From positions 14,065 through 78,064 of the forward strand of contig JAPLJS010000070.1 in NCBI GenBank assembly GCA_026388545.1: a stretch of DNA of 64,000 nucleotides, written 5' to 3'. The notes beneath the pieces were generated by a model. That model was not told the DNA's origin and did not search any database. It worked only from the letters and a program-made list of their open reading frames with translations. This DNA is from Deltaproteobacteria bacterium (GTDB lineage: Bacteria; Desulfobacterota; Syntrophia; Syntrophales; UBA2185). Both the position numbers and the translations under genes were made by a program. Shown piece by piece: positions 19,095 to 35,019 of this stretch (positions are counted from its first letter, which is position 1; every line of letters begins with the position of its first letter).

Positions 19095-19144
19095 TTCACT
19101 TCACCTGCTTTATCCATACCCTGATTTTATTGAGAGGTTATTGA
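19095..19144 (-). repeat. E-family repeat, copy E6 (opposite orientation to the other copies)
   Basis: Reverse complement CTCTCAATAAAATCAGGGTATGGATAAAGCAGGTGAAG aligns with copy E5 (CGCAAAATCGAGGGTGATGATAAGTAGGGGTTAG). Confidence 0.5.
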
Positions 19145-19468
19145 CTATTTATTGAAGTCGTTAATTTGGGGAAATGAGTTTTTGTAGCAGATTTCGTTCG
19201 GTAATGCGCAGGAGCGATCAAAGGAAAAATGGAATGCGCCAATTGTGAATGATCCGGGACCGATCACGAAACGGAAGATGCCATAGCCGCACGATACAGC
19301 AACTGTGACACCAGCAATGCCGCTACAAAAACCCGCGATCTTTGTTCGCAATGAAATGGGTGCCCATACAAGAAGAAACGCGATCGGAAGCGCACCAAGC
19401 CAAAGTCCTGCGGTTAAAAAGAACTGCGCGAGAGGCACCACCAAGACATACGCGATTATCGTTTTCAT
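19145..19468 (-). CDS. Small membrane protein (3 predicted TM), hypothetical
   Basis: Hydrophobic 107-aa ORF. Its 3' end has a diverged partial copy at 60170..60277. Confidence 0.5.
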   Translation of the reverse strand: MKTIIAYVLVVPLAQFFLTAGLWLGALPIAFLLVWAPISLRTKIAGFCSGIAGVTVAVSCGYGIFRFVIGPGSFTIGAFHFSFDRSCALPNEICYKNSFPQINDFNK

Positions 19469-19607
19469 CTTGTATCCTTCTTCAGACTCCTCTTTTGGGA
19501 CGAACGCCGCGCCTGATCAGTGGCCATGGTTTTTAGCCCGTCTGCATCTAGGCGTATGTTATGTTAATGCTTTTAATATATAGCATATATGTCAGTTTGA
19601 ATATCTT

Positions 19608-20426
19608 TCATTTCATTAATTCACATAGGTTCTTAAGCTGAGGTCGTCCTTCCTGCCATGATAGGAAATACCTTTTCACAGCACTGTTGCAGTTTTGTGC
19701 CAACGCGTCGATATGTTCATATTCTTCTTTAGGAAAATTAATGCCCACAATAACACCTTTTAGAGAGGATTCAATGGGTAATCCTATGGAATCACCGTCA
19801 TTTGCTATTACAACTAATCTATATTCATGCTCTTCAAGGTAGTCCATTAATTTCAAGAAGAAATATTCATGGAAATACTTATCTATTTGCATCTCCAATG
19901 CTTTATCAACACCATGTCCGATTATATTTCTGCAACTAATTTTCCTTGCTTTAACAAAACTTTCCAAATGATACTGATACTCTACTCTTCCAGTAAATTT
20001 CTTATTCGGTTCAAATGTGGACTTAAACTGTTCTTCCAGTTGTTTTCTATCGAAAACTAAACAAACACCAGTATGTTTCACCCCATATTGTGACCACATC
20101 CTTGACCTTGACCAGCCCACACGGTAATAATCTTGCCTATAATGAGGAATTGCATTTTTTCCGAAATTGATCTCTTCATTATTCCATCCGCAAAAACAAA
20201 GTATCATAGAATTATTTTTAATATAATTATCAAAAACATAAAGAGCTTCTCTAAAATTTTTTAAACAAAACATCTGTTCAGCCCCAATAAAACCAAAATT
20301 CCACTGTTTAGATTCTCGCGGGTCATCACAAGATAAAAGGGGACTGAAATTAATCCGCTTGTCATATAAAATAGATATTGCTTTGTCCTTGCTGGTATAG
20401 TGACATACCAAATTTTTGTCAAACAT
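19608..20426 (-). CDS. DUF2971-like hypothetical protein
   Basis: The N-terminal pattern VCHYTSKDKAISILYDKRINFSPLLSCDDPRE resembles the DUF2971 signature (HYTS...L...F......NDP.E). I prefer the ATG at 20426. Confidence 0.5.
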   Translation of the reverse strand: MFDKNLVCHYTSKDKAISILYDKRINFSPLLSCDDPRESKQWNFGFIGAEQMFCLKNFREALYVFDNYIKNNSMILCFCGWNNEEINFGKNAIPHYRQDYYRVGWSRSRMWSQYGVKHTGVCLVFDRKQLEEQFKSTFEPNKKFTGRVEYQYHLESFVKARKISCRNIIGHGVDKALEMQIDKYFHEYFFLKLMDYLEEHEYRLVVIANDGDSIGLPIESSLKGVIVGINFPKEEYEHIDALAQNCNSAVKRYFLSWQEGRPQLKNLCELMK

Positions 20427-20555
20427 TGCATAACCTTTTTGATACCAAATATCTTGCAAATATCATAAACCGTTATTACCTACATTAAAACATAACGTGC
20501 TGATCAGCAGCAGCTGTAGGCCGACCGCTGGATTTTATTGTTGGGCGTTTATTCC

Positions 20556-21050
20556 TTATTTCATTCGCTCTCCTAATCTTTCAGAAACCCTATTCAATAA
20601 CTCGAGTTCAGAGGCAAACTGCAATTTGCCTCGGTTGACAGCATCGCCAAGAAAGAAAAGCGGATCAAGTCGGACAGAGATTGAGCCACTGATGAAGAAA
20701 CTTGCTATGAGAATCGCTGCGGCAATCCACATTTGATTCCAGAGAACAAGGGGTGTAAGAAGCAGGAGTCCAATCCATCGGAAACGGTTTAGATGGCAGG
20801 ACATATCTTTCGATCCGAAAGGAAATCTCAGAGCAAGGTGGTACTTCCGAAGTATTTCAATTTCGTCAGGTGACCATATTTCTGGATCAGGACTTGGTTT
20901 GTTGGAATCAATGAAAAACAGGTATGACTGGAAAGCGATATAGATCGTAAGATAAGTATATCCGCCAGCATGTGGCATGAAGGTGGACCATACAAATATA
21001 CTGAAGGGGATGAAACCCGTCATCAGATTGCTTATGATGATTGTCCACAT
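20556..21050 (-). CDS. Hypothetical membrane protein (about 4 TM)
   Basis: RBS GGGAGG upstream of the ATG; hydrophobic segments. Confidence 0.55.
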   Translation of the reverse strand: MWTIIISNLMTGFIPFSIFVWSTFMPHAGGYTYLTIYIAFQSYLFFIDSNKPSPDPEIWSPDEIEILRKYHLALRFPFGSKDMSCHLNRFRWIGLLLLTPLVLWNQMWIAAAILIASFFISGSISVRLDPLFFLGDAVNRGKLQFASELELLNRVSERLGERMK

Positions 21051-21069
21051 TTCTCATTCCTCCCAACAG

Positions 21070-21121
21070 TTATTTTTATGCTTATTTCATGAAATACCAA
21101 ACAAATATCTATGTCAAGCGA
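21070..21121 (-). promoter_or_regulatory. Shared upstream module A (TTGACA box plus conserved leader), paralogous to 22368..22419
   Basis: Minus strand reads TCGCTTGACATAGATATTTGTTTGGTATTTCATGAAATAAGCATAAAAATAA. It is nearly identical to module B. Confidence 0.55.
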
Positions 21122-21340
21122 TATGAATTAAATAATTCTCTGAAAATCGTGCTAAATTAATTAATAATTCGGCATATTGATAAACGGACATGCTTTATAC
21201 GGAATCGGCATAAGTTGCTGACACAATTAGTCGTAGATTGTTGGGCATCCTAAAACTAGGCTGCATGTGCGGGGAATAAGCTGTAAAGGAGTAGCATGTT
21301 TCATCTCGCATTCAACGGGCTGCTCTGACAAAACGACCTG

Positions 21341-21410
21341 CGACTTGTATTTGAAATTGAGAGGAGGTGATAAGTAAAAATGACATGCGCCGGAACTTGA
21401 CACCACCTCC
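21341..21410 (+). repeat. E-family repeat, copy E1
   Basis: CGACTTGTATTTGAAATTGAGAGGAGGTGATAAGTAAAAATGACATGCGCCGGAACTTGACACCACCTCC. Imperfect hairpin GGAGGTGATAAGT / ACTTGACACCACCTCC. It abuts the stop codon of the upstream gene. Confidence 0.7.
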
Positions 21411-21574
21411 TACCATGGAAGCTTGTATGCTAACCATATGCCAAGTATTCCACCGATAGTGCTTCCAAGCAATGACGCAACGGAAAATGTATCAGCTCCC
21501 AGGAGCGTGGGCACATACCCTCCTGCCATGGAGCCTATAACTATTCCAAACATAATCATTGATTTTCGAGACAT
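21410..21574 (-). CDS. Small hydrophobic Gly-rich protein, hypothetical
   Basis: MSRKSMIMFGIVIGSMAGGYVPTLLGADTFSVASLLGSTIGGILGIWLAYKLPW. Start uncertain (TTG 21604 is the alternative). Confidence 0.35.
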   Translation of the reverse strand: MSRKSMIMFGIVIGSMAGGYVPTLLGADTFSVASLLGSTIGGILGIWLAYKLPW

Positions 21575-21805
21575 AGCATCTACCAAAATGAATCGACAAA
21601 ACAAATGGTATGACTTTCAGGAAGATGTCAATAAAAAAAGTCCCATTAAATATTTTCAAGATCGGCATCCGCCGGAATCGCTGTCTTCACCTACAAAGCG
21701 TGGAGAATAGGAAACGCCTAGGATTGAGGATTCGCGATTGAAAGTGAGGATAACGCGGAGTTCACCGTGGGCCGGGTTTATTGGCGATTGGCTACACCCA
21801 CTCGT

Positions 21806-22351
21806 TTAGGAGGCCTTTAAGGTATCGTCTGCTCTCAAGATGCTACTGAGAAGATCCCGGCCTTCCTGAGACAGAGCCCATTGTCGTTGGCCTCTTATTG
21901 TTGATTCAGTAACGAGCTTATTTTCCAGAAGCCAAGCAATAGATGCGAGAATTTCCTTTAACGGCAGCTTTGTTTCTTTCGTTAGGCCAGCCGAGTATCG
22001 CCATGTATAGTTTGGATTACCTAAAGCTTTCATTACCAATCGGGTAGCTTCATCGTTTACCGAGAACGCATTTATGCTAAACGTCGCTCCTGTTGCCTCA
22101 TCTGCAGGTTCCGTTTCTTTGGCAATAATTGTCTCCATCTTCTCTTTGAAGTCTTGAAACTGAATCTCCAATCCACCAGGAAATTTAAGTGATTTAAAAA
22201 GTGGCGAAAGCCAAGGGATTAGAGCGATGAAAAAGAGAGTTAGAGTTATTGCATCTATGGTAAGGGTAGGCCATATGAGATGTGCAAGCGCGATCAGCAG
22301 GGCAGCTATGGTAATTCCATATTTTACTTTGCGGTCGTCCGTTTTATTCAT
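21806..22351 (-). CDS. Hypothetical protein, 2 TM N-terminus and soluble C-terminal domain
   Basis: 181-aa ORF preceded by shared module B. Confidence 0.5.
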   Translation of the reverse strand: MNKTDDRKVKYGITIAALLIALAHLIWPTLTIDAITLTLFFIALIPWLSPLFKSLKFPGGLEIQFQDFKEKMETIIAKETEPADEATGATFSINAFSVNDEATRLVMKALGNPNYTWRYSAGLTKETKLPLKEILASIAWLLENKLVTESTIRGQRQWALSQEGRDLLSSILRADDTLKAS

Positions 22352-22367
22352 TTGCTGTACCTAACAT

Positions 22368-22419
22368 TTATTTTTATTCTCATTCTATGAAATATTAAAA
22401 AAATATCTATGTCAAGCGA
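22368..22419 (-). promoter_or_regulatory. Shared upstream module B, paralogous to 21070..21121
   Basis: Minus strand reads TCGCTTGACATAGATATTTTTTTAATATTTCATAGAATGAGAATAAAAATAA. Confidence 0.55.
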
Positions 22420-22470
22420 AGGGCTCCGCCCTGTACCCGGAAAAAGAAAATGATAAAAGAACCAAATGAC

Positions 22471-23775
22471 CTATTTGCCAGAACGCACCGGGAGAGCCCG
22501 GCCGGAGTAGGCGATCGACTGGTGAAGCCAGAACCGAAGGCCAACGCTGAAACCGAAGATGGCGGCGTCGGAATCATCTGTTTCTGATGCCCATACAAAC
22601 CATTTAGTAATCTCTATCAAATCCGTCACGCAAGCACCATGTGTATTTTCCTTAATTTCATCATATATCCCCACCAGTTCGTCCTGCGTCGGCATCCGCC
22701 AGTCTGAATAACCGCCCCCGCGATAGTTCTCGCAATATTTTTTAGCACCGCGCCAATTAATATCCGCCCCGTTGTCCCCTGCCGCCCACATCAGGTTTGT
22801 CCGCATATCCAGAACCGTCCCGTTATTGTAGGCAATGAAATCTCCATCCCGAAGGGTTTCCCTAACTTTAGCGATGAACTGGTGCTTTGACTTGGCAATC
22901 TGTTTCTTTTTTTTTGTCGACTTGCTCTGCTCCGCTTCCAGGTTCTCTCTCCGATCGGGTTCATACCTATCATGATCCGCTGACCTGAGAAGGCGGAACC
23001 CGCTTCTGAACCTGTCGTCCGGGGCGCTGAGGCTGCGAGACGCCGCGCGGCAGTGACTGGCGTAGCTGCCCCAGCAGCCGCCGCGATGGACGCGGTACGC
23101 GCCCTTCGGCGGTCCACAAGGATCAGTAACGCTATGCGATGGATAAGCATCGAACCAGTCTTGACACCACTCCATTACATTGCCTTGCATATCATATAAA
23201 CCCCAGGCGTTGGGCTTCTTCTGTTCTACAGGTTGTGTTTTCGCTCCTGAATTATTTCCATACCAAGCATATTCATCAAGACGGTCGGGATCATTCCCGA
23301 AAAAATACACCGTTGTACTTCCCGCCCGGTAAGCATATTCCCACTGAGCTTCTGTGGGCAGGCGGTATTTGTTCGTCCCCTCCATCTTATTGAGCTTCCG
23401 AATGAATTTCTGGACATCGTTCCAAGATACCTTCTCCACAGGCAAGTTATCATCTCCTGAATATGACGGATTGTTCCCCATCACCTTCTTCCACTGCCCC
23501 TGGGTCACCTCCGTCGTCTGCATGTAGAAAGGTTTGCTGATCGTTACCTGGTGAAGTGTCTCGTTAGATAATCTCTTCGGTTCGTCTTCAGGCGATCCCA
23601 TCATGAAAGTCCCGGCAGAGATCAGGACAAACTTGGCGTTGAGAATCGGGCAGAGGTATTCCTTTTTACCAAGGGATTCCGCAAGTAAAAGCCCGCGTTC
23701 TATCAATGCACGCTCTGGTACAGTCAGCTCATATCTTTCCCGGAGAATCAGTCCTTTTTGTTCCGTTTCAGTCAT
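22471..23775 (-). CDS. FGE-sulfatase (SUMF1/formylglycine-generating-enzyme fold) domain protein fused to a DUF1566-like C-terminal domain
   Basis: FGE-fold motifs (GTFMMGSP, EVTQGQW, NAWGLYDMQGNVMEW, RVHRGGCW). The C-terminus carries YSDWRMPTQDEL, typical of DUF1566. The start overlaps the stop of the J-domain gene (TAATG). Confidence 0.75.
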   Translation of the reverse strand: MTETEQKGLILRERYELTVPERALIERGLLLAESLGKKEYLCPILNAKFVLISAGTFMMGSPEDEPKRLSNETLHQVTISKPFYMQTTEVTQGQWKKVMGNNPSYSGDDNLPVEKVSWNDVQKFIRKLNKMEGTNKYRLPTEAQWEYAYRAGSTTVYFFGNDPDRLDEYAWYGNNSGAKTQPVEQKKPNAWGLYDMQGNVMEWCQDWFDAYPSHSVTDPCGPPKGAYRVHRGGCWGSYASHCRAASRSLSAPDDRFRSGFRLLRSADHDRYEPDRRENLEAEQSKSTKKKKQIAKSKHQFIAKVRETLRDGDFIAYNNGTVLDMRTNLMWAAGDNGADINWRGAKKYCENYRGGGYSDWRMPTQDELVGIYDEIKENTHGACVTDLIEITKWFVWASETDDSDAAIFGFSVGLRFWLHQSIAYSGRALPVRSGK

Positions 23776-24614
23776 TAATGAATACCCTTTTTGCTATCGT
23801 TCTGCTTCGTTTTTCTTTGTTCATCTTTCTCCACGCGCTTGATCATTTCTCTCAGTCTGGCATCGGCACCCACGATCTGTGCGTCTACTTCGTGCGCCAT
23901 CTCTGAGAGGAGTTCCCTGCCCGCATCCTGGGCTTCATCTACTCTCAATTTCAAGCTGTAAAGTTCCGTCTCTTTCAAGGTTTCCATTTCCTTGCCAATC
24001 GCCTCAATACGAGCACGAACAAGGGCAAGCTGGCGAATGATTCTGATCAACTCTGCACCTGTTCCTTCACCAGACACGGAATCGGGACTGCTCTCCCACT
24101 CATTCAGAAGGGATCGTAGACGTTCCTCGTTCCTTTCTGCATATGCCTTGTTGATCTCCTGCATAAATCTATGTCGTCGCTCACGTGCCTGTTCGTCCGG
24201 TGCGAGGTCGGGATGTACCTTCTTGGCCAGATCACGGTATAGCTGTTTCAGATCCTCCGATGGTTTAAACGGTTCTGTTTCGTATTCCTCCGTGGCGATT
24301 GATTCTGTTGTATTTGCAGATTCCTGAGCCTGAGTGCGGCTACGTTCGGCCTCTTTCCTGACTTCTTCGTTCTCCGGTTCAAGACGGGCAAGAATCTCTG
24401 CGATCTGTGCCTCAATATCATCGAGCTTCGCGAGCTTTACACCTACGATGCGAAGGTAGCGGCGGCGCAGGTCTTCCAGCGCCACCTGTAATGTGGTCAG
24501 GTCCAATTCCTTGATGGTCAGTTCATCTTCCAGTATTGATAACTCGGCGCGCTTTTTCTCAAGTTCAATTTCTTCGGGGGTCATTTGCTTTACAAGAGAT
24601 TTAGGTTGTTTCAT
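23775..24614 (-). CDS. Coiled-coil J-domain (DnaJ-like) protein
   Basis: J-domain with an HPD motif (LYRDLAKKVHPDLAPDEQ...INKAYAERN), flanked by Glu/Arg/Leu-rich heptad-like segments. I prefer ATG 24614 because the longer ORF overlaps the upstream gene. Confidence 0.7.
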   Translation of the reverse strand: MKQPKSLVKQMTPEEIELEKKRAELSILEDELTIKELDLTTLQVALEDLRRRYLRIVGVKLAKLDDIEAQIAEILARLEPENEEVRKEAERSRTQAQESANTTESIATEEYETEPFKPSEDLKQLYRDLAKKVHPDLAPDEQARERRHRFMQEINKAYAERNEERLRSLLNEWESSPDSVSGEGTGAELIRIIRQLALVRARIEAIGKEMETLKETELYSLKLRVDEAQDAGRELLSEMAHEVDAQIVGADARLREMIKRVEKDEQRKTKQNDSKKGIH

Positions 24615-24673
24615 AATTGATACTTCCTTACAAAAATGGCAGGGAGGCTGGGTTAGTTGGCTGAGTTGGGTTT

Positions 24674-25141
24674 TTATTGATATTTTGCAAAATCCAATAT
24701 TTTTTCTATTCGATCCCGAACTCGTTTTTTCATTTCGTGTTCTTTCTCTATTGTTAGTCCACGACAAGAATATTGTCCGAAATACGGGATACCATTTTCA
24801 TTGCAATCATCTGAATGGCAATAGTATCGGTACCAAGCGGCATAGAAATCAGTTCTTTCTGTGGGCTTCAAGAAAGAATCAAAATCAAAGACAGCTGCCC
24901 TGTGTTTATCAAATGCATTTTCTAAAAAAACCGGAAGTTCAATCTCCAAAGCATGCTGAGCTGGATTGACGGCTAAAATTTCGTCTTTGAATGCTTCTCT
25001 TAGTTTCATGGCAGCTCCACGTCTTGCAGTTACTTGAGCCAGGGAAAGAGATAATCTGTAACCAATCCAAGCACCAAGAAGGGTACCCACAATAGTGCTA
25101 CCAACACCAATTATCGCTATTTCAGAGGCACTAAGTATCAC
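24674..25141 (-). CDS. Hypothetical protein with an N-terminal TM helix
   Basis: 155-aa ORF with a GTG start, 60 nt upstream of the J-domain gene on the same strand. Confidence 0.45.
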   Translation of the reverse strand: MILSASEIAIIGVGSTIVGTLLGAWIGYRLSLSLAQVTARRGAAMKLREAFKDEILAVNPAQHALEIELPVFLENAFDKHRAAVFDFDSFLKPTERTDFYAAWYRYYCHSDDCNENGIPYFGQYSCRGLTIEKEHEMKKRVRDRIEKILDFAKYQ

Positions 25142-25396
25142 TTTTTACTCCAATGCACTTGGTGAGTATTTGGTCGGTCTAATGAATTAATCGGGGCAAC
25201 TGCCCCTGACACTTGTATCATAACCGCTGCGACTATCATATCATTGATTGCCTTCTGAAATCTTGTATTCTCGTCAAGGTTGACGTTTCACTGACTTCAG
25301 GAAGGAGCCTGTACGTTCCAGGGAAGAAAAATAGGCTTTCTTGCATATACGCGCTTTCAAACCGGATTCAATAAGCTGGCCCGATCAGTTACCTCT

Positions 25397-25458
25397 CGCT
25401 TTGTATTTGAACTGAGTGAGGGCGGTTAATGAAAATATGGCATACGCCAGACCTTATA
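25397..25458 (+). repeat. E-family repeat, copy E3 (degenerate hairpin half)
   Basis: CGCTTTGTATTTGAACTGAGTGAGGGCGGTTAATGAAAATATGGCATACGCCAGACC... Similarity to copy E4 extends leftwards to about 25294 (ACTTCAGGAAG and CTTGCATAT blocks). Confidence 0.6.
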
Positions 25459-25462
25459 TCAT

Positions 25463-25816
25463 CTACTTTATCAATAACTTGTCATGACTGACGGTATCGC
25501 AGATTAACGAAGGAAAGGTGCAACTCCTCCCGTTCAGCGGCGCATCTGCTGAAACGGGTGGTTGGGCGTCGCAGGGCGCACGCGCGTACCAGAACTCCAC
25601 GACGCATAGACTGTTCCGATGCATGACGAATCCGCGCCGTTGATACCAGGTGTCAAGCACAGCTTGCGTGAGCAGTGCGGGTCGGAGATCTCGCTCATCA
25701 GGCACTATTTCGTCAGCGGCAAACCACGGCATGCCGCTCATGTCGGGCGATCGCAATGCTATGAGCAATAGATCGAACGTGGCCCCTCCGATTGTTAGTC
25801 TTTCACCAGGTTGCAA
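25463..25816 (-). CDS. Hypothetical protein (117 aa), GC-richer
   Basis: ORF only; no motif recognised. Overlaps the 3' end of the upstream gene by 22 nt. Confidence 0.3.
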   Translation of the reverse strand: MQPGERLTIGGATFDLLLIALRSPDMSGMPWFAADEIVPDERDLRPALLTQAVLDTWYQRRGFVMHRNSLCVVEFWYARAPCDAQPPVSADAPLNGRSCTFPSLICDTVSHDKLLIK

Positions 25817-27291
25817 TCCTCGCCTTTGACTAGGCCTGTTTTTGCAGGAAATCTGCCCGGATCAAAGGTGGTGGCACCTATACTTGCGGCATATTGTTTG
25901 ACCGCTTTCAGTATGGTGGAAAAGTCTTTCTGCGCGTCAGTCTTTTGGTTCTGATTATCAGGTCCTTCGAGAGATGCCAAATAATCATCTCTGGCTTCGA
26001 GAAGAACCTTTAATGCATCTTCCGGCCACCTGGCGATAGTGATTTCTGCACTGACAGGTTTACCGGCAATCAATCGCAGAGTGCCGTCGATGTTTCGCTG
26101 GTTAATGCCTTTATTGAAATCAAGCATGGCTTTCAGCTTTTTGCACTGAACCGACTCGGTAGCATTGTAGGACCCGATCACGGAGTCTTTGGCTGCTCTT
26201 AGTACAGCCGCTCTTTGGGCGGCGTTCAAGCTGTTCCAGGCGGTCTTATCAATGTGCATCCATGATAACAGGAACGGTTGATGCCAAGAGGGATGATGGG
26301 CATATCGCGCGCCAGTCTGGCCGATATTTTGCGAGCAGTTCTCTTTGGTACCGGACGGAATAGGGAAAGCAAGCACGGGACCGCAATTCAGATTGCCCGT
26401 ATCGGGGTTACCACGAGGATTGGCGGGAGTCGCATCCTTTACTGGAAAGAAATCGACAAGGTCATCAAACGGCGTGACATATTCGAAGCCTTGAATAGTT
26501 GCTCGTTGCATGGGCAACAGGACAGACTGGCCTCCTACAGGCGGATAGAACTTGAGAGTCTTGGAGGGAATGACACCTCTTTTCACCAATAGGTCACATG
26601 CACGGTCCACGATATCCTGCGGCGGAGCCAAATAGCGAATTCTCCAGCCCGACGTGCAAAGACCAGCCAGGCCGATCCCACTGCCCTGGTTTTGACAATC
26701 CGTGTCTCCGGCGTTGCAGTCCGGCTTGCCAATGGGTTTTGGGAAATAACCCGAGCCCTGCATGGTGCTTCCCACGACGGGGAAGACGATTTGAGTTCCC
26801 CCTCGGTTATCCAGTATCGCTTGTGCCAATTCGATGCCGTTCCCCCCAAATCCATCGAGCTTCGCATCGTAGAGAAATCCAAGCGTCTGCCGGAAATTGA
26901 TCCCCAAGGGCACCGAATTGAAAATAAAGCCCCAGTTGGGATCTGACACGGCCGGCTGCGGTTGGGCATTTGCGTTTGCAAATTGCACTCCGGCCCTGAG
27001 GGCATTCACCGCGCGCCTGGTACTCTGGTTTCGCTGGAAAACGACCTTCTGTCCGACGGGTAATGCATCCGGCCCGTGTTCATCGGTGTAATCGATAACC
27101 TTCTCTATGAATATCCGCATGGCACCGTAACCCGGATTACTTGGATCCGTTGAAGTCCCGCTGCCACGCCCTATGGTTGGAGATCCGCTGTAATCGTTGT
27201 ATTGAATCGTTACATCTGCAACCGCAGACTGACCAAACAATGCGATGCAGATGACAACAGCCAATGCTGACACCGTTGTGCCTATTCTCAT
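25795..27291 (-). CDS. Secreted protein resembling TRAP-type (DctP/COG4663-like) solute-binding proteins; orphan
   Basis: RBS GGAGG and ATG 27291. Signal peptide MRIGTTVSALAVVICIALFGQSAVA. The segment FNSVPLGINFRQTLGFLY...GGNGIELAQ...VVGSTMQGSGYFPKPI resembles the conserved core of TRAP binding proteins. No DctQ/DctM genes nearby. Confidence 0.4.
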   Translation of the reverse strand: MRIGTTVSALAVVICIALFGQSAVADVTIQYNDYSGSPTIGRGSGTSTDPSNPGYGAMRIFIEKVIDYTDEHGPDALPVGQKVVFQRNQSTRRAVNALRAGVQFANANAQPQPAVSDPNWGFIFNSVPLGINFRQTLGFLYDAKLDGFGGNGIELAQAILDNRGGTQIVFPVVGSTMQGSGYFPKPIGKPDCNAGDTDCQNQGSGIGLAGLCTSGWRIRYLAPPQDIVDRACDLLVKRGVIPSKTLKFYPPVGGQSVLLPMQRATIQGFEYVTPFDDLVDFFPVKDATPANPRGNPDTGNLNCGPVLAFPIPSGTKENCSQNIGQTGARYAHHPSWHQPFLLSWMHIDKTAWNSLNAAQRAAVLRAAKDSVIGSYNATESVQCKKLKAMLDFNKGINQRNIDGTLRLIAGKPVSAEITIARWPEDALKVLLEARDDYLASLEGPDNQNQKTDAQKDFSTILKAVKQYAASIGATTFDPGRFPAKTGLVKGEDCNLVKD

Positions 27292-27585
27292 TTTGTCCTC
27301 CTTCTGCTTAGAAGTAATTAAGTAAAGAATGATCAAGAACAGGAGCGCGTTACAGATGATGGCGATGATCTTCACGTGTGGTCCCTCGCTCCTGACGCCC
27401 AACAATGTTTATATGTATCCGTATAAAAACCCAAACACAACACTATTTGCCGTATAAGACGCCAGCGGGAAAGATATCTCATCGCTCATAAATAATTTTA
27501 TATCGTACTCTTGCGTCGGTATATTGTTTTTATAACGGCGTCTCATATGGATCGGCATAAGACCCTCTGCAACCTCTTAATGAGC

Positions 27586-27620
27586 AATAAAAAACCCCGC
27601 TCTTTTTAAGAAACGGGGTA
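27586..27620 (-). terminator. Rho-independent terminator
   Basis: Minus strand reads ACCCCG-N14-CGGGGT followed by TTTTTTATT. Confidence 0.5.
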
Positions 27621-27889: not shown

Positions 27890-27998
27890 ACGAAGTGTGA
27901 GGTCAAACTATATGAACGAAATGAAGATTAAAGGGTAGAATCGTTCATGGTCTATGTATCGCATTTATAATATCATTATCTTTCTTTCACATCGAGCC

Positions 27999-28619
27999 CT
28001 ATTGATGGTGTTCCAGACGGAGACGCAGTTCATGGAGACGGCGTCGTGCGCGGTCGAGGCTATCGGCTGCCTGCGCTGCTCTTTCGAGCGACCATGACTC
28101 CTGAACGAATCCGCATAATGCCTGGTTATAGGCGAGCCCTATCCTTGCAGTAGAGCCCCGCGCAGGAAGAATATCGGCTTTTACGGATCTCCTGCCGTAG
28201 CGCCGGACGAGGTTGAGAAGTGCTTCCTTTGGATCGACAAGCGATTCCGGGTGATTGGGTATTCGAATTAGAGGCACGCCGGAAAACTGAGCGAACCCTT
28301 CTCGATCGGCCAATAGCCACGCCTCAGTCTCACGCACCGAGACCCGAAAAAGCATCGTCTCCGGCAAAACCATTCTTCCACGCCAATCGTCGATCAAAGC
28401 AGTCGGGCATTCGATACGATCGAGGTCCGTGAGAAGCAAGACAGGAATATAGCGGGCTATCTTTTTGAATTGCCGGAGTTCTCTCTTGAGATAGTCGTTG
28501 CCCTTCCGGCCCAGATGCACCGCAACGTAAATGCCCCGGTTTTCTTCCTCGATAAGACGATCTGCTACGGCCTCGCTTAAGGCGTCTTCTGTGGCAATGT
28601 AAACGCCCGTCATTCCCAA
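27999..28619 (-). CDS. DUF4276/TOPRIM-like protein (putative nuclease partner of the upstream ATPase)
   Basis: Acidic motifs in TOPRIM-like order: ATEDALSE, LLTDLD, ETEAWLLAD. The start overlaps the ATPase stop by 10 nt. Confidence 0.55.
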   Translation of the reverse strand: MGMTGVYIATEDALSEAVADRLIEEENRGIYVAVHLGRKGNDYLKRELRQFKKIARYIPVLLLTDLDRIECPTALIDDWRGRMVLPETMLFRVSVRETEAWLLADREGFAQFSGVPLIRIPNHPESLVDPKEALLNLVRRYGRRSVKADILPARGSTARIGLAYNQALCGFVQESWSLERAAQAADSLDRARRRLHELRLRLEHHQ

Positions 28620-29776
28620 AGCCTCATCTGTCCCAACTGCTCTATCTTTTTAGGGCGTGTCTGCGGTAACACGACCTCTGCAACCGAAAGACCTGCATCA
28701 AGGCCCTTTTTTTCTTCATTGTTTGGGGAACGGGCAATCGTACCTTCACGAGTCGCCTCAAGGACTACGACACTGCGGGAGTCGATACCTTTGTTGCTGA
28801 GCAGGGCCTCACTGTGGGAACTTATAATAATCTGCCGTCGCTGCTTGCTAGCGCGCTGAATGCGCTCTATCAGGGCTGGAAGCTGCTCCACCACGGCCTG
28901 ATGCAGAGACATTTCCGGTTCCTCAATGAGAAGCAATGAATTGCCTTCAAGGAGAGACCAGAGGATGCCTAGGAACCGAAGTGTTCCGTCGGAGAACTGA
29001 TCTTCCCTCTGCCACCCAGCTTTGGGGCGGTGATGCTCATAAAGGGCTTCGAGGTGCGGTTTTCCTGTCACTTCATCTTTCTTGAAATGCAATTCTTTGA
29101 ACTGAGGAACTGCAGCTGACAGGGCCACATTAATCTTCTTCAGTCTTGCTTCGCGTATCCTCACCTGGCACTTGGCTATCCGCTCCAAGAATCCCTGACC
29201 GAAGGGATCGTCCTCAAGAGGGTTCCCACCAATCTTGTCTCCATACTTGAGTAGTTGGGGCACCAGATGAAGGTAGGTAATGCTGCTGAAGTAGTCCACA
29301 ATCTCTCGGAAATCGGCACTGGCCCTCGTCTGTTCCAGGTAAGTTTCCGTGAGCAACCGATCGTCCTTCTGGTCATCGGGAAGCGGGCGTTTGATGATAC
29401 ACTTTTTGGCACGCCAAACCTCCTCGCAGGAAACAAGCAGGCGCTGAGCACCCTTGCCTTCCGATTTGAAGCCGAGCACATACCGCCAGGAGTTGGATCG
29501 ATCATCAACTCGCTCACCAAAAAAGACCTCGATTTTCACCTCGGGGTCACGCCGAGCATGAAGACAACGGAGTTTCTTAATCCCACCCCGGTCTTTCACG
29601 GCCTTCTGAAGTCCCCCGCCAGCCGGTTTGCACACGTCGCGGAGGAACCGAAACACGTCAAGGAGGTTTGATTTTCCGGAGGCGTTCGGTCCTATAACAT
29701 AAGATGTCTGGGTAAGATGGATCTCAGCTTCGTGGAAGTTACGCCAATTCTTTAGTTTCAGATTAGTAATATACAT
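28610..29776 (-). CDS. ABC/SMC-type ATPase (AAA15/AAA21-like; OLD/AriA-like N-terminal ATPase architecture)
   Basis: Walker A GPNASGKSN 30 aa from the N-terminus, a long insertion, Walker B/D-loop LLLIEEPEMSLH and H-loop IISSHS. Confidence 0.75.
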   Translation of the reverse strand: MYITNLKLKNWRNFHEAEIHLTQTSYVIGPNASGKSNLLDVFRFLRDVCKPAGGGLQKAVKDRGGIKKLRCLHARRDPEVKIEVFFGERVDDRSNSWRYVLGFKSEGKGAQRLLVSCEEVWRAKKCIIKRPLPDDQKDDRLLTETYLEQTRASADFREIVDYFSSITYLHLVPQLLKYGDKIGGNPLEDDPFGQGFLERIAKCQVRIREARLKKINVALSAAVPQFKELHFKKDEVTGKPHLEALYEHHRPKAGWQREDQFSDGTLRFLGILWSLLEGNSLLLIEEPEMSLHQAVVEQLPALIERIQRASKQRRQIIISSHSEALLSNKGIDSRSVVVLEATREGTIARSPNNEEKKGLDAGLSVAEVVLPQTRPKKIEQLGQMRLWE

Positions 29777-29919
29777 AGCGTCATTACCCCGTTAATATAG
29801 ATTAATCACCTTGAGCAATTTGATCCCCTATCATCGACGATTTGCCAGCTTCGGAGGTCAGTGCCTTTGTACCGTAGAAATGGGCACCGAAGCAAAAGCC
29901 CGTTTAACTAGATAAGAAC

Positions 29920-29975
29920 AGATAAGAATTTCCTTTATTGGAAGAAAGTATAGGGAAAACAGCCTTGTATGTCAA
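29920..29975 (-). promoter_or_regulatory. Shared promoter/leader module C (TTGACA-N17-TATACT), paralogous to 34962..35019
   Basis: Minus strand reads TTGACATACAAGGCTGTTTTCCCTATACTTTCTTCCAATAAAGGAAATTCTTATCT. Confidence 0.65.
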
Positions 29976-29988
29976 TGAAATAAAAACA

Positions 29989-31369
29989 ACATTGTAGGAA
30001 GCAAATAATATGTCCGGTCTGTAGCACATAAACTGTCCGGTTAATAAGTTACCCGATAGGAGGTAACTGATGAAGCGGACAGAGATGCTACAGGAGATCC
30101 GGAGGATGCGATTTGAAGAGGCATATGGAGGATGGCAAAAAGGGAGATTAAGCCAGGAGGAAGCAGCAGAGATATTGGGGGTATGCAGCCGGACATTTCG
30201 GCGTCAGATTGGTCGCTATGAAGAAAACGGGCTTTCGGGTCTGGACGATAAACGGCTTAATCAGGCCTCACATCGACGTGCGCCGGTAGATGAGGTCATG
30301 GCGTTAGGTGAGCGATACAAGAGCAGTTATAGAGGCTGGAATGTGAAGCATTTTTACTCCTGGTATTCAAGAGAAGGGGGAGTGCGGAGTTACACTTGGG
30401 TCAAGAATACGCTTCAGCGCCAGGGATTGGTTTTGAAGTTAAAAAAGAAAGGTTCTCATCGCAAGAGAAGAGATCGTAACCCCTTGCCAGGGATGATGTT
30501 GCATCAAGACGGGAGTGACCATGAATGGGTTTTGGGCAAGAAGTGGGATTTGATCGTGACGATGGATGATGCAACAAATGAACATTACAGTATGTTTTTT
30601 GTTCATGAAGAGGGAACGGCCAGCAGCTTTCAGGGCGTACAGGATGTGATTCTTAAAAAGGGGTTATTCAGTTCACTTTATACGGATAGAGGCAGTCACT
30701 ACTGGTTTACGCCGAAAGAAGGAGGCAAGGTCAGCAAAACCCAACTCACCCAGTTCGGTCGGGCCATGCAACAGTTAGGCATTGAGATGATCCCCGCATA
30801 TTCTCCAGAAGCAAGAGGCCGGAGCGAAAGAATGTTCCGCACACATCAAGGCAGACTTCCCAAAGAGCTTGCCGCCCATAACATCACAACCATAGACGCT
30901 GCCAACCATTACCTGAGAAAGGTATATCAACCTGCATTTAACAAAGAGTTCAAACAAAAACCATTGGAGGAAGGTTCGGCTTTTGTTCCTTGGGTGGGAA
31001 CTCATATCGAGGATACGCTTTGTGAGCATCATGAACGGACTGTTAGTCCCGATAATTGTGTCAGCTTTGACGGGATAATTTTACAGATTCCGCCTGATAG
31101 GTATCGTTGTCATTACGTCAGGGTTAGAGTTAAAGTCCATCGCTACACAGACGGTTCCCTGGCCATTTTTCATGGTCCACGGAAACTGGCTGATTATGAT
31201 GAAAATGGAAAGCTGAAAACAAAGAAAAAAGAAAAGGCAGCGTAAGTCCGCCGCTCGCCAAAATCGAAGGAAAGGGGCTCCAGGCTACGCCTTCCGCCCC
31301 TTTCCTTGAACATTGTAAAAGTGGACATATCATGTGCTACAAAATAGGACATTTCTATTTGTTGACAAC
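29989..31369 (+). mobile_element. Insertion sequence (rve-type DDE transposase; IS481/ISNCY-like) with imperfect terminal inverted repeats and a 14-bp direct repeat
   Basis: ATGAAATAAAAACA occurs at 29975..29988 and at 31370..31383. The ends share ATGTCC-N4/5-TGTAGCACAT-N4-TGTCC in inverted orientation. Confidence 0.75.
30070..31245 (+). CDS. DDE transposase, integrase-core (rve) domain with N-terminal HTH
   Basis: HTH (LSQEEAAEILGVCSRTFRRQI). Candidate D, D, E residues lie in HQDGSDHEW, LYTDRGSHY and PEARGRSERMF. Confidence 0.85.
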   Translation: MKRTEMLQEIRRMRFEEAYGGWQKGRLSQEEAAEILGVCSRTFRRQIGRYEENGLSGLDDKRLNQASHRRAPVDEVMALGERYKSSYRGWNVKHFYSWYSREGGVRSYTWVKNTLQRQGLVLKLKKKGSHRKRRDRNPLPGMMLHQDGSDHEWVLGKKWDLIVTMDDATNEHYSMFFVHEEGTASSFQGVQDVILKKGLFSSLYTDRGSHYWFTPKEGGKVSKTQLTQFGRAMQQLGIEMIPAYSPEARGRSERMFRTHQGRLPKELAAHNITTIDAANHYLRKVYQPAFNKEFKQKPLEEGSAFVPWVGTHIEDTLCEHHERTVSPDNCVSFDGIILQIPPDRYRCHYVRVRVKVHRYTDGSLAIFHGPRKLADYDENGKLKTKKKEKAA

Positions 31370-31739
31370 ATGAAATAAAAACACATATGGCATTAAGTTT
31401 TGATGATTTTGTAAAAGGGGGAACCTATGCATCTGTTTTTTTGAGACAGCAGATTTCATTTTTATTTTTGGCTAGTCGCAAGGGACCTTTCAGACATAAT
31501 TCGAATGGACATGTCCCGCACGCCCCATTAGGTTTCATAACTGGATATAGTCGTTTCAGGTGTGATCGGGATCGGCAATGATGTATTCATTACTTATTAG
31601 AAGTCTCGCATGTTAATCGAATTTTGAAAATGGAGGACTTCAGGAAGTAGGAATCTTTTCGCTTAAGGGATAATCGAACAGCTGATACCTTGCATATTTC
31701 AGGTGGCATTCAGTAAATCCGCCGATTGAAAGATTGTCA

Positions 31740-31800
31740 CGATTTGTATTTGAAAGTCCCGAGTTTTTATCTTTCTGGCGCCTAAAACAGGGACAAGGTA
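31740..31800 (+). repeat. E-family repeat, copy E4 (degenerate hairpin half)
   Basis: CGATTTGTATTTGAAAGTCCCGAGTTTTTATCTTTCTGGCGCCTAAAACAGGGAC. Similarity to E3 extends leftwards to about 31637. Confidence 0.55.
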
Positions 31801-31880
31801 ACCCATAGCAAGTTCATGGGACCTGTTTTCCCAAATCTCCTAATATTTTTCCGCGATAACTTTTTTACAAAGGTAGATCG

Positions 31881-32777
31881 TCACAATGCACGCATCCATT
31901 CGGGCTTGAGGCCAATTTCTCCCCGCAAAGCCGCATCTATCAAATCCAAAGCTCTTTGCTTGCCACTCGGTAGCTTTGCCTTAACTGGCAGGTAATTGGA
32001 GGCATGGTTCGAGAAAAAATATCCTCTGGTCAAATCCGTACAGGAGATCATTTCCCTCAATTCCCTGAGCAATCCCGCTTCATCGGGTAGTTCGAACATC
32101 CCGTTTTCACAATCACGGTAAAGGGGTGTCCCTGGAATGAGCATCACCGTCAAAGCCCCGACAAAATCGGGGTCCATGGCGCTTAACAACTCGCCCGTCG
32201 CGCGGGCATGACGAAGTGATTTCTCACGACCACCAATACCTAAAAGAACCGTGGCCGACAACTGGATGCCAGCCTCCTTAACCCTGCGTCCCATTTCGAT
32301 GCATGTCGCAGCAGCAGAACCTTTATGGATCGCATTTCTGATTTCATCATCGCCAGTCTCGACGCCTAAATACAGAATGCCGAGGTTATTTTGGCGCAAG
32401 AGCTTCAGTTCTTCCAGGGATTTCAATTTGATGCTTTTGACGTTTGCATAGGCCCCAACCCGTTTGACCCGTGGTAGGTGCTCTTTGATGTGTTCCAGTA
32501 TCCAGACCAACCTCTGTTGGGGAATAATCAGGGCATCGCCATCCATCAAAAACAGGCGATCCTCGTGCTGCATATGTCGAGCTGCAAAAAGGATGTCGCT
32601 GAGAATAATCCTGTCATCCTTGATCTTGAAGCGCTTGTCCGGATAAGAACCGCAAAATGTGCATTTGTTATGTGAGCAGCCCAATGTGACCTGCAAAAGG
32701 ATGCTGTCGGCCTCACTGGGCGGTCTGATGCAATACCCTTCATAATGCATCCCTTCATCTTCGAGAATAATATTCAT
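31881..32777 (-). CDS. Radical SAM domain protein (298 aa), cluster motif CX4CX2C
   Basis: LQVTLGCSHNKCTFCGSY near the N-terminus, followed by GGE-like and GxIxGxxxE-like segments (LFLMDGDAL, VLLGIGG). No SPASM or B12 domain is apparent. Confidence 0.75.
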   Translation of the reverse strand: MNIILEDEGMHYEGYCIRPPSEADSILLQVTLGCSHNKCTFCGSYPDKRFKIKDDRIILSDILFAARHMQHEDRLFLMDGDALIIPQQRLVWILEHIKEHLPRVKRVGAYANVKSIKLKSLEELKLLRQNNLGILYLGVETGDDEIRNAIHKGSAAATCIEMGRRVKEAGIQLSATVLLGIGGREKSLRHARATGELLSAMDPDFVGALTVMLIPGTPLYRDCENGMFELPDEAGLLRELREMISCTDLTRGYFFSNHASNYLPVKAKLPSGKQRALDLIDAALRGEIGLKPEWMRAL

Positions 32778-33068
32778 TGCTTATCTCATTTCTATTTCCA
32801 TTTGTATTGAGCAGGATTGAAACAATTAAAAATTTTGCGCAGTTTTATGTATGCCTGTGGATCGATCAATTTCAGGATTTTGGGAAGGCCCTTTGGTGAG
32901 ATCTTAATATTATTAACAGTAACTTGTCCGTGCTCTTTCTTCGATACGCTCAATCGATAAAAATCAAGGTGAATTTCTTGATTACCGATCGATTCGGGAT
33001 GCTCAAATGTTTAAATGTTTTATTCGAGAAATGATAAGGATTATTTTTTATCTTTCCTAATGATAATT

Positions 33069-34877
33069 TTATGTTTTTCTTTCTAATATCATGTCTTCAA
33101 TCCCTTTTCCAGGAGGGATGATTGGAAGTATGTAAGACTCTCTTTTTATTTCAACATCTAAAATATAAGGACCTTTATGAGATAATGCTTCTTTTATTGC
33201 AGGAGTTATTTCTTCAGATCTGGATATTCTGTTTGTCTTTATTCCATGATATACATCCTTTAGTCCAACAAGGTCAGGATTATGGTTTCGCTTTATGCAG
33301 TCTTTAAATGATGAACATTCTACAGGACAGTCTATGTTTCTATAAAGGCAGCATTCAAATAGATGACCTCTGTCAAACATCTCATGCCATTGCATAGGTA
33401 AGCCCCATAACCCATTGTTTATGACAAACATCTTTACAGGTATCCTGTTTGAGGCAATTGTTGCAAGCTCTTGAATGTTCATCTGGAAACTTCCATCACC
33501 GTCAACAAGTAATATTGCTTTATCCTTATTAGCATAATATGCACCAATTGCAGCAGGTAATCCACAACCCATTGTCCCAAGTCCTCCAGAAGTTATAAAA
33601 TCTTTTGGATTCTTGAAATTATAATATTGCGCAGTCCACATCTGATGCTGTCCAACACCTGTAGCAACAACAGCACCACCAGAGGTTAGGTCAGATAATT
33701 CTTTAATGAATTTTTGCGGAATAATCTCATCCTTATCATCATCAAGTTTTGGATTTAATTTTCTCCACTCAATTATTTCATCATGCCAATCTTTTAATGA
33801 TTCAATCCTTTCTGGTCCATGTCTAAGAGCGTATTCTAAGAATCTTTTTGCAGATGTATTTATAGAATAATCAACTTTTCTTATTTTATCTATTTCCGAA
33901 GCATCAATATCAACATGAGCGATTATTTTAGCTTTTTTCCCAAAACCTTTTACAACAACTCTATCATCAAACCTTGCACCGATTGCGAGAATATAATCTG
34001 CATTTAATGCAGAATAAAGAGCTTCAACTGTCCCATGTATGCCAAGCATTCCAAGAGAAAGTCTATCATTCCTTTCAATTGTCCCAAGCCCCATCAGTGT
34101 CATTCCCACAGGTGTGTCATATTTTTTTGCAAATTCTCTCAAAAGATCTTGTGAATCTTCGACCTTAATCCCGCCTCCAACATATAAAATAGGTCTTTTT
34201 GCACTTGAAAATTGATATAACATCTCATCTATGCTGTTTGTATCAAAGTTATCGATGGGTATTTTTATTTTTGTACCAAAAGGAATTTTATTATATTGAG
34301 AAGTTTCATTTCCAAGCAATGCATCTCTGCAAATGTCAATCAATACAGGTCCTCTTCTGCCAGTTGTAGTTAGTTCATATGCAAGTCTTAATGCTCCTTC
34401 TATCTCATCAGCTTTCTTTATTAGCATTGTATGTTTTGTTATTTGTGATACAATCAGTGCAATAGGAACTTCCTGGAATGCATCAGTCCCAATCCCTGGA
34501 GAAGACACTTGTCCTGTTACAAATATTACAGGTATTGAATCCATGTGTGCATCAGCAATAGGTGTCACAATGTTTGTTGCAGCAGGTCCAGATGTTACAC
34601 AGACAAATCCAGGTCTTCCAGTGATTTTAGCATAACCTTCTGCAGCATGCCCTGCTCCTTGTTCATGCCGAAACATTATCACTTCAGGTGTTTTTTCTTT
34701 TCTTTTCAGCCTCTCATTCATCTCAACATACATTGGCATTATAGCTCCACCAGTATGTCCAAAAATATAAGAGATTCCTAATTCATTTATTGTATCAACA
34801 AAGATACCAGCACCTGTTCTTACTTTATTTTCCGGGTTTTTTATCATTCCGCAGTCAGTTTTATTAGTTTTCATCAC
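33069..34877 (-). CDS. Thiamine-diphosphate enzyme, acetolactate synthase large-subunit-like, with a Cys-rich insertion
   Basis: N-terminal Pyr domain (FGHTGGAIMP, HEQGAGHAAEGYAK), the ThDP-binding motif GLGTMGCGLPAAIGA...GDGSFQMN, and an insertion FECCLYRNIDCPVECSSFKDC. The gene is very AT-rich. Confidence 0.8.
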   Translation of the reverse strand: MMKTNKTDCGMIKNPENKVRTGAGIFVDTINELGISYIFGHTGGAIMPMYVEMNERLKRKEKTPEVIMFRHEQGAGHAAEGYAKITGRPGFVCVTSGPAATNIVTPIADAHMDSIPVIFVTGQVSSPGIGTDAFQEVPIALIVSQITKHTMLIKKADEIEGALRLAYELTTTGRRGPVLIDICRDALLGNETSQYNKIPFGTKIKIPIDNFDTNSIDEMLYQFSSAKRPILYVGGGIKVEDSQDLLREFAKKYDTPVGMTLMGLGTIERNDRLSLGMLGIHGTVEALYSALNADYILAIGARFDDRVVVKGFGKKAKIIAHVDIDASEIDKIRKVDYSINTSAKRFLEYALRHGPERIESLKDWHDEIIEWRKLNPKLDDDKDEIIPQKFIKELSDLTSGGAVVATGVGQHQMWTAQYYNFKNPKDFITSGGLGTMGCGLPAAIGAYYANKDKAILLVDGDGSFQMNIQELATIASNRIPVKMFVINNGLWGLPMQWHEMFDRGHLFECCLYRNIDCPVECSSFKDCIKRNHNPDLVGLKDVYHGIKTNRISRSEEITPAIKEALSHKGPYILDVEIKRESYILPIIPPGKGIEDMILERKT

Positions 34878-34922
34878 ACTACCTTAACTATTTTTTTAGA
34901 AACAAGGTTGTGAACTCATCAA

Positions 34923-34961
34923 TTAAATGAGTATCACACTAATCACTCTTACAATTAGCAT
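34923..34961 (-). CDS. Candidate branched-chain-amino-acid-rich leader mini-ORF MLIVRVISVILI
   Basis: Own translation. 9 of 12 codons are Leu/Ile/Val. Lies between promoter D and the ThDP gene. No clear SD. Confidence 0.3.
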   Translation of the reverse strand: MLIVRVISVILI

Positions 34962-35019
34962 AGATAAGAATTTCTTTTTTGACGGTTGGAGTATAAGGCG
35001 GGAGAATCTTGTATGTCAA
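34962..35019 (-). promoter_or_regulatory. Shared promoter/leader module D (TTGACA-N18-TATACT), paralogous to 29920..29975
   Basis: Minus strand reads TTGACATACAAGATTCTCCCGCCTTATACTCCAACCGTCAAAAAAGAAATTCTTATCT. Confidence 0.65.

Follow-up and report, generated by a model that had tools for sequence, protein, structure and literature searches.

An oriented repeat family at module junctions in a variable genomic island of Syntrophales

Unrelated gene modules in a genomic island of a Syntrophales bacterium are joined by copies of an oriented, non-coding repeat. These junction repeats are a family without earlier description, and any capture mechanism behind the island is a matter of inference. 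The island, which spans ~16.4 kb between an MscS gene and the leader of trpE, lies within a stretch of 64,000 nucleotides (the window) from a Deltaproteobacteria bacterium of lineage UBA2185 (GenBank assembly GCA_026388545.1, contig JAPLJS010000070.1, positions 14,065 to 78,064). As an island it is unremarkable, a variable region rich in defence genes that grew by accretion; its junction DNA is the unusual part. At least ~70 copies of the repeat core were found in ~35 Syntrophales metagenome-assembled genomes (MAGs) and two viral contigs. Tentatively, and at somewhat less than even odds, the core is read as a small non-autonomous unit, mobile or gene-converting, that occupies inter-operon spacers of plastic DNA, here within an island that grew by accretion. 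No occurrence of the repeat motif was found in the literature.

Architecture, boundaries and distribution of the junction repeat

An earlier note, made from the letters of the window alone, described a repeat, E, between 19 and 35 kb. Self-comparison of the window confirmed that E is real and recurrent; the part delimited at that time is only the 3' tip of a ~230-nt element. The element has a core of 116 nt between two invariant motifs, TTCAGGAAG and TTGTATTTGAA, with a semi-conserved 5' flank of ~80 nt, and the spacing of its conserved motifs is fixed at 96 ± 2 nt. TTGTATTTGAA occurs in exact form four times in the window, always on the plus strand (21345, 25401, 27825 and 31744). Copies are not limited to 19-35 kb, since copies X, Y and W and one partial copy lie further along the window (Table 1). 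In a subset of copies, TTGTATTTGAA is followed directly by a module of ~70 nt, H, which ends in CCACCTAC at the stop codon of the upstream gene. A module of ~180 nt, F, is present at 12 other loci and in a copy near the end of the window. The sequence formerly listed as a sixth copy, E6, belongs to this different, related family. F and E share the motifs TATTTGAAGTC and GCAnnTTTCAACCCG, arranged in a different order, and at locus L057 the E core continues directly into F. The order along the genes is stop codon, H or F, core and often then a promoter. The core is found with H, with F or with neither, a mosaic make-up like that of BOX elements and of bacterial interspersed mosaic elements (BIMEs).

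The limits of the core are sharp, in particular at its 3' end. Of 88 high-identity matches between copies, 53 end 0-19 nt past the start of TTGTATTTGAA, and 17 begin at TTCAGGAAG. All similarity between pairs that are 89-96% identical is gone 1-3 nt past TTGTATTTGAA. This sharp loss is seen between genomes (L032/L057, L051/L072, L006/E1 and L060/L111) and within them (L015/L119, L108/L115 and the two L003 copies). For example, the 3' half of E1 is 89% identical to the L006 copy, and identity stops at TTGTATTTGAA. The genes beside the core are unrelated between near-identical copies, and H stays with the upstream gene (L030/L113 and L099/L111). Multiple near-identical copies in unrelated flanks are also a hallmark of miniature inverted-repeat transposable elements (MITEs). 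Such flanks, together with conserved termini and an interior specific to each subfamily, are the signature of a discrete DNA unit that has been copied to new places.

The repeats also mark points at which gene order changes. Relatives were collected by a scan of metagenomes with the MscS protein (MscS identity 74-93%), and both island edges and three synteny breakpoints fall on repeats. Similarity to relative L123 stops at the start of the F copy at the left edge, and similarity to relative L136 stops at the end of the same copy. This comparison supports the earlier claim that shared non-coding modules lie at the edges of the island and at its internal junctions. Contigs from the same sample (SRR20698647; L001, L203 and L202) end at window positions 21190, ~21290, ~25505 and ~30106, which lie inside E1, the repeat at the 3' end of the 117-aa open reading frame (ORF) and a copy of an ISNCY insertion sequence (IS). 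Long exact matches must therefore recur elsewhere in the sample, from which all same-species data come, and the repeats account for assembly breaks at these points.

The wider distribution was examined with a strict pattern (TTCAGGAAG, 94-98 nt, TTGTATTTG) in one genome per species, so that per-genome copy numbers are lower bounds. Chance matches aside, the pattern was found in dozens of MAGs labelled Syntrophales, Syntrophaceae, Smithellaceae, Syntrophus or "delta proteobacterium", with at most three matches per genome among the matches listed. A profile built from the window copies and run on 8-kb loci around the pattern matches, for which ORF calls are crude, detected at least ~60 copies in 37 loci, 13 of which hold two or three. 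No copy was detected in 787 kb of contigs from MscS or permease relatives, including syntenic DNA of close relatives, compared with about 10 in the 64-kb window. The repeats are thus not spread evenly through core DNA, which agrees with the expectation of the earlier note. Within the window, repeats occupy five of the seven island gaps of at least 150 nt and three of 16 such gaps elsewhere (Fisher p = 0.026).

The orientation of the core is strongly biased. Where the neighbouring genes are in tandem, the core is antisense to both 20 times and sense three times; convergent gene pairs enclose 12 further copies, and divergent pairs seven. Two viral contigs from IMG/VR follow the same rule, with all copies in one shared orientation and the genes antisense to the repeat. 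L213 has a terminase fragment, E, an HNH endonuclease and 323-aa ORF, and E again. L214:8670-11369 has a partial E, an HU/IHF-like gene, E, a 344-aa ORF and E with H, and therefore three copies in 2.7 kb. E3 had no plasmid match.

Promoters adjoin many of the copies. Of 44 copies, 15 have a TTGAC no more than 100 nt past the core, against an expected 9% (p = 3e-6). In the island, promoter/leader modules A and B share 51 of 60 positions and precede unrelated proteins, as the earlier note had stated. A copy of the A/B type, 86% identical, is found ahead of a gene in L080 that we take, from its N-terminal motif, to encode a thioredoxin-reductase-like protein. The likeness of promoters C and D was also confirmed: TTGACATACAAG, TATAC and GAAATTCTTATCT are present in both, and the two are the best sigma-70-like sites of the island, with 11 of 12 consensus positions. 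A third promoter of the C/D type follows copy Y, ahead of an ankyrin gene. The GAAATTCTTATCT box hints at a recurrent operator or leader. Weak matches to the C-type promoter/leader (68-80% identity) occur at window 45703-45758, L050:2932-2990 and L124:9904-9949. Inspection of the conserved blocks by eye for a sigma-54, sigma-28 or extracytoplasmic-function (ECF) promoter gave no convincing candidate.

Possible nature of the repeat

The repeat does not behave as a structured nucleic acid. No repeat matched Rfam, either in the whole window at gathering thresholds or in 19-36 kb at E <= 5; the only relevant match was a sub-threshold Trp leader. RNAalifold gave no consensus structure for two alignments, the second on both strands. 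The averaged base-pair probability of the core is at most 0.15 on both strands, and the minimum-free-energy z-scores of 42 copies have means of +0.26 and +0.03 on the two strands. Hairpins had been proposed for the E and H copies; these fold no better than shuffled sequence, and E1 alone, on the minus strand (z = -2.5), retains one. The absence of attC hallmarks was upheld, as no R''...R' pair (RYYYAAC/GTTRRRY) 50-150 nt apart is present in any island intergenic region on either strand. Folding did not find the 20-40-nt palindromic unit of repetitive extragenic palindromic (REP) sequences and BIMEs in the core or H, nor did it find in the core the subterminal hairpins of IS200/IS605-derived palindrome-associated transposable elements. 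Based on these results, the core is neither attC, REP, an IS200-type end nor a structured RNA. Stems with apparent covariation and G.U pairs were noticed by eye in H; folding six copies on both strands gave no conserved hairpin. Small ORFs in the repeats, sought by eye in either direction, were likewise dismissed, as 1-nt indels are frequent and no reading frame is conserved.

A multi-copy small RNA gene, convergent to the upstream gene or within its 3' untranslated region, would be consistent with the strong orientation bias and with a 3' end that is sharp and conserved. However, the Rfam, consensus-structure, pair-probability and z-score results all argue against it, and no conserved promoter or terminator surrounds the unit, so that very little credence can be given to this explanation. 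An ordinary high-copy REP/BIME-type extragenic repeat, present in all intergenic DNA and only incidentally at module borders, is also very unlikely, if slightly less so. The mosaic make-up, with motifs reordered between the E and F families, is typical of such repeats, as is the location at the 3' ends of many kinds of genes, including signalling and metabolic genes. A palindromic unit was not found, however, and the strong local clustering, the lack of copies in 787 kb of related contigs and the at most three strict-pattern matches per genome among those listed argue against a high-copy repeat.

The other serious rival, besides a recombination system, is a purely cis-regulatory role. The repeat could bind IHF and/or a global regulator, as an upstream platform or insulator located between terminator and promoter; it would be selected and copied with promoters and would move no genes. 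The constant position, past the upstream gene and immediately ahead of TTGAC promoters, the fixed motif spacing, the lack of RNA structure and an IHF-like WATCAANNNNTTR box read from alignment A2 in many copies all support such a role. Yet the 12 copies between convergent genes are located where no promoter is needed, near-identical copies are found in unrelated flanks of different genomes and phage contigs, and the 787 kb of related DNA without a copy must hold promoters too. A cis-regulatory role alone therefore has a real chance of being correct, albeit a minor one.

Dedicated gene capture without hairpins would require a trans-encoded site-specific recombinase that acts at TTGTATTTGAA, and perhaps at TTCAGGAAG, to insert or shuffle promoter-bearing modules, in the manner of an integron or of the Xer-dependent pdif modules. 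Such a system would fit the coincidence of island edges and synteny breakpoints with repeats, the clustering of copies in variable DNA and phage contigs, and the loss of identity a few nt from the invariant 11-mer TTGTATTTGAA. Ordinary homologous recombination needs more than an 11-nt motif, and the idea of a recombination system therefore stays alive. In addition, tyrosine recombinases are the commonest Pfam family near E copies elsewhere, accounting for 6 of 112 ORFs within 1.2 kb.

The candidate enzymes do not form a coherent set, however. One is the Xer/IntI-like gene of an IS91-type element with a Y2 transposase (L056:4235-6190), which scores 212 bits against the integron-integrase model (cut-off 265). 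Others are tandem Xer-like tyrosine recombinases beside repeats, two in L057:1986-3516 and three ORFs in L084:1479-3435, which are pairwise 54-63% identical between the two loci. L073 has a tyrosine recombinase fragment near E. The orientation of the recombinase relative to E varies by locus, with three different orientations. A dedicated enzyme was considered as the source of the enrichment and rejected, because the enrichment resolves into the IS91-type element and the tandem Xer-like sets with inconsistent geometry. The recombinases near E are read as mobile elements that share plastic regions with the repeat.

Further evidence against dedicated capture comes from the window and from the modules themselves. 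Pfam and NCBIfam scans of the 55 main ORFs (49 of at least 100 aa) detected only the ISNCY transposase, so that the window encodes no integrase, as first reported, and no other recombinase; the search covered the 64-kb window, and the 79-kb source contig is ~15 kb longer. The core is linked to neither neighbouring gene. No dyad-symmetric core site was apparent by eye, and no formal search for one was made. The candidate defence pair HEC-01 of the island is also present in two other Syntrophales MAGs (L215 and L216; 82-84% identical) with no E copy within 17 kb, indicating that gene modules do not carry the repeat along. The integron-like capture logic proposed earlier is not sustained, given that the core has no stable structure and is linked to no gene, that the modules bring promoters of their own and that HEC-01 occurs without E. 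Capture by a dedicated recombinase is therefore unlikely. A wider version, in which undescribed hairpin-independent recombination at TTCAGGAAG/TTGTATTTGAA, catalysed by an enzyme encoded elsewhere in the genome or on phages, would reshuffle promoter-bearing modules in chromosomes and phages as a functional analogue of the integron, is perhaps a shade less probable again.

We favour a non-autonomous mobile or gene-converting core, and both its mobility and the promotion of module exchange by the repeats are inferred. Separate transcription units of different origin would accrete at the variable MscS-trpE spot. The core would settle, in a single orientation, in spacers that run from the end of a transcription unit to the promoter of the following one, and the core, H or F and a portable promoter would then serve as standardised connectors. 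The repeats may well offer shared sequence for the exchange of modules. The look of a cassette array would result from many short self-contained units, and therefore many spacers.

Several observations weigh against a mobile core. No transposase candidate is consistently located near core copies, and no terminal inverted repeat was found beyond TTCA/TGAA in TTCAGGAAG/TTGTATTTGAA. The boundaries of 10 high-identity pairs showed no per-copy target duplication; a candidate duplication, of the 5'-flank block against the 3' junction, was discarded because it holds only at the consensus level. The left boundary of the core is less sharp than the right. Match ends at invariant motifs could partly reflect strength of conservation rather than true breakpoints. 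Moreover, no filled and empty versions of a site were found for a single core copy, and the per-genome copy numbers from the scan are lower bounds only.

Comparison with known systems and significance

Integron arrays, and the clusters of attC sites lacking integron-integrases (CALINs), resemble the island in having unrelated co-oriented genes, a repeat after each module and a location in variable DNA; like CALINs, the island has no integrase nearby. Integrons and CALINs have attC sites, whereas the junction repeats have neither the RYYYAAC...GTTRRRY pair nor a stable hairpin. Integron cassettes are mostly promoterless, whereas the island modules have strong sigma-70-like promoters. Sequence conservation of the repeat core extends over 116-230 nt, and the core is not carried along with the gene.

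BIME/REP sequences of E. coli, BOX elements of S. pneumoniae, enterobacterial repetitive intergenic consensus (ERIC) sequences and Correia elements of Neisseria are interspersed intergenic mosaic repeats. Like them, the junction repeats are lineage-specific, non-coding, located at the ends of transcription units and composed of a few recombined motifs (E, H and F), and an IHF-like box with adjoining promoters is shared with Correia elements and BIME-1. Unlike them, the junction repeats have no palindrome, hairpin or terminal inverted repeats, are strongly oriented, appear to be low in copy number and clustered, and occur in phage contigs and variable DNA. MITEs are likewise short non-coding elements whose termini are conserved and whose interior is specific to the subfamily, and near-identical MITE copies also occur in unrelated flanks. 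The inverted termini of the present core are limited to TTCA/TGAA, however, target-site duplications were not seen at the boundaries compared, and no matching autonomous element or transposase was identified.

Two further systems offer a comparison. Phage morons, and the modular evolution of phages in general, involve self-contained units (promoter, gene or genes, and terminator) placed between other genes, with short conserved sequences at the borders. The copies that flank the two-gene HNH-endonuclease module and the HU-like gene in the viral contigs are similar in arrangement, but the border is a long, oriented, defined element that is common to chromosome and phage across a bacterial order. 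The Xer-dependent pdif sites of Acinetobacter plasmids are 28-bp XerC/XerD dyads in alternating orientation. They too bracket small gene modules with a shared recombination-type sequence and lack a local recombinase; the junction repeats differ in being ~116-230 nt long and in direct orientation, with no dyad noticed by eye.

Syntrophales are key syntrophic partners in methanogenic degradation, and to our knowledge their mobile DNA is almost unstudied. An order-wide, oriented and clustered repeat that marks accessory borders, and that is also present in phage, provides a handle on the gain of defence and orphan genes. A mobile core would amount to a transposon-like unit that lacks the usual ends, a recombination site would mean a new way for genes to be captured, and a regulatory element would be a control region common to newly acquired genes. 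Alignment A2 and model R1 can be used to flag plastic regions of Syntrophales MAGs.

The island, its genes and neighbouring features

The MscS-trpE spot is a hotspot with interchangeable and largely defence-type cargo. In relative L124 (MscS 77% identical), trpE and its leader are ~430 nt from MscS and the ~16-kb block is absent. L124 matches window 18821-18904, 35344-35381 and 35407-35715, with only ~150 unrelated nt between the matches that end at 18904 and begin at 35344; the island is therefore placed at ~18905-35343. The same spot in L122 (MscS 84%) holds 10 kb encoding a UvrD fragment, an HTH-peptidase M78 protein, a Phd antitoxin, an AbiEii-like nucleotidyltransferase and SbcD/SbcC-like proteins, and in L136 (MscS 91%) a TPR protein occupies the position of the island. 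On the left, synteny over 9-18.9 kb, including the MscS gene (17854-18891), is kept in five relatives; the right flank is a complete trpEGDCFBA operon. The GC content per 500 nt is 0.33-0.36 at 19.5-20.5 and 33-35 kb and 0.50-0.56 at 22.5-24.5, 25.5-27 and 28-29.5 kb. The accessory nature of the island and the differences in composition between its gene units, from 0.33 to 0.56, are both as described earlier. Presence or absence between conserved flanks, atypical composition and a content of defence and mobile genes are the features of a genomic (defence) island.

ORF listing and family scans reproduced the earlier gene order, with every non-IS ORF between MscS and the trp leader on the minus strand (Table 1). 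Of the 14 non-IS protein genes originally counted, about 12 are credible. Repeat DNA overlaps the 107-aa and 64-aa "last genes", which have no gene call in same-sample contigs, and the label "TRAP-like" for the 536-aa protein found no support in Pfam, NCBIfam, PADLOC or PDB. Exact-protein look-ups for the island genes in other contexts returned only same-sample fragments.

Table 1. Positions of repeats, promoters, genes and other features in the window
Feature	Position	Strand	Evidence and remarks
F-family repeat (formerly "E6")	19091..19251	+	nhmmer E = 2.7e-37; overlaps doubtful 107-aa ORF 19145-19468
DUF2971 protein, PADLOC candidate PDC-S31	19608..20459	-	Pfam E = 1.5e-9; PADLOC E = 1.9e-12
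164-aa orphan protein	20556..21050	-	No Pfam, NCBIfam or PADLOC match; gene call also in L001
Promoter/leader module A (TTGACATAGATATTT...)	21062..21121	-	51/60 (85%) identical to module B
E1, core with H	21145..21426	+	nhmmer E = 3.5e-39; H = 21355-21426
181-aa orphan protein	21806..22351	-	No family match; not a paralogue of the 164-aa protein
Promoter/leader module B	22360..22419	-	
Three-gene module: 155-aa ORF, J-domain-like protein, FGE-sulfatase/Lcl_C protein	22471..25141	-	Pfam FGE-sulfatase E = 6e-47, Lcl_C E = 2e-16, DnaJ E = 4e-6
155-aa ORF of this module	24674-25141	-	No family match
E3, core with H	25217..25479	+	nhmmer E = 8.6e-39; covariance model (CM) 120 bits
117-aa and 536-aa orphan proteins	25463..27405	-	No Pfam, NCBIfam, PADLOC or PDB match
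Intrinsic-terminator-like hairpin, then T run	27594..27619	-	
E2, split	5' half 27704-27805; 3' tip with H 27815-27902	+	CM model positions 17-119 and 167-219; H E = 2e-9
HEC-01 candidate defence pair, AAA_21 ATPase and DUF4276	27999..29776	-	PADLOC HEC-01A E = 2.6e-149, HEC-01B E = 3.9e-60
Promoter C	29947..29975	-	TTGACA-17-TATACT; 11/12 consensus positions; boxes common with D and the promoter after copy Y
ISNCY-family IS, between E4 and promoter C	30021..31343	+	Transposase 30070-31245; NCBIfam transpos_ISNCY_2 328 bits
E4, core without H	31547..31809	+	nhmmer E = 5.9e-40
Radical SAM protein	31881-32777	-	Pfam, NCBIfam; 291 nt from thiamine diphosphate (ThDP) enzyme gene
ThDP enzyme, scores as acetolactate-synthase large subunit	33069-34877	-	Pfam, NCBIfam
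Promoter D	34990..35019	-	TTGACA-18-TATACT; 11/12 consensus positions
Copy X, right edge of island	35038..35295	+	nhmmer E = 3.9e-36; L124 similarity resumes 48 nt beyond
Copy Y (53081-53347), then C/D-type promoter ahead of ankyrin gene	53081..53410	-	nhmmer E = 5.7e-47; TTGACA-17-TATACT
Partial junction repeat, between ankyrin and RHS genes	54192..54291	-	CM E = 4e-6
Second F-family copy, downstream of Big_5/RHS-repeat gene	60154..60334	-	nhmmer E = 4e-43
Copy W, downstream of Sir2-family gene	63748..63988	-	nhmmer E = 4e-36; CM 84 bits

In L215 and L216, the HEC-01 pair is flanked by restriction-modification-type genes and large helicases, in restriction/defence islands with tight gene packing. 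Homologues of 70-88% identity are found in Syntrophales, Desulfobacteraceae, Desulfobulbaceae, Gammaproteobacteria and a Dehalobacter. The acetolactate-synthase-like gene has a GC content of 33-36%, compared with a regional average of ~45%, and stands alone behind promoter D with no adjoining small-subunit gene. The inverted repeats of the ISNCY element, as read from the sequence, begin with TGTAGCACAT.

At the right edge of the island, copy X overlaps an 83-aa ORF (35182-35433) that is unlikely to be a gene. The tryptophan operon leader (window 35435-35541) scores 29.6 bits against Rfam RF00513, for which the gathering score is 41, and has a run of Trp codons and a terminator-like hairpin (35496-35541) ahead of trpE. 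In the left flank, only 75 nt (window 17779-17854) separate MscS from the DUF362/ferredoxin genes, compared with 1.2-1.4 kb in five relatives (L124:2725-4150, L125, L126, L145 and L200), and this interval is a second small variable spot. The conserved left flank also contains a ComEC-type competence channel gene (6361-8856; Competence, DUF4131 and Lactamase_B domains), which makes DNA uptake a conceivable route of module acquisition. A polymorphic-toxin-like locus at 53430-60334 encodes an ankyrin-repeat protein, a 1453-aa peptidase C39/RHS-repeat protein and a Big_5-domain protein, and is followed by the second F repeat, which also matches the final 24 codons of the doubtful 107-aa ORF at 19.1 kb.

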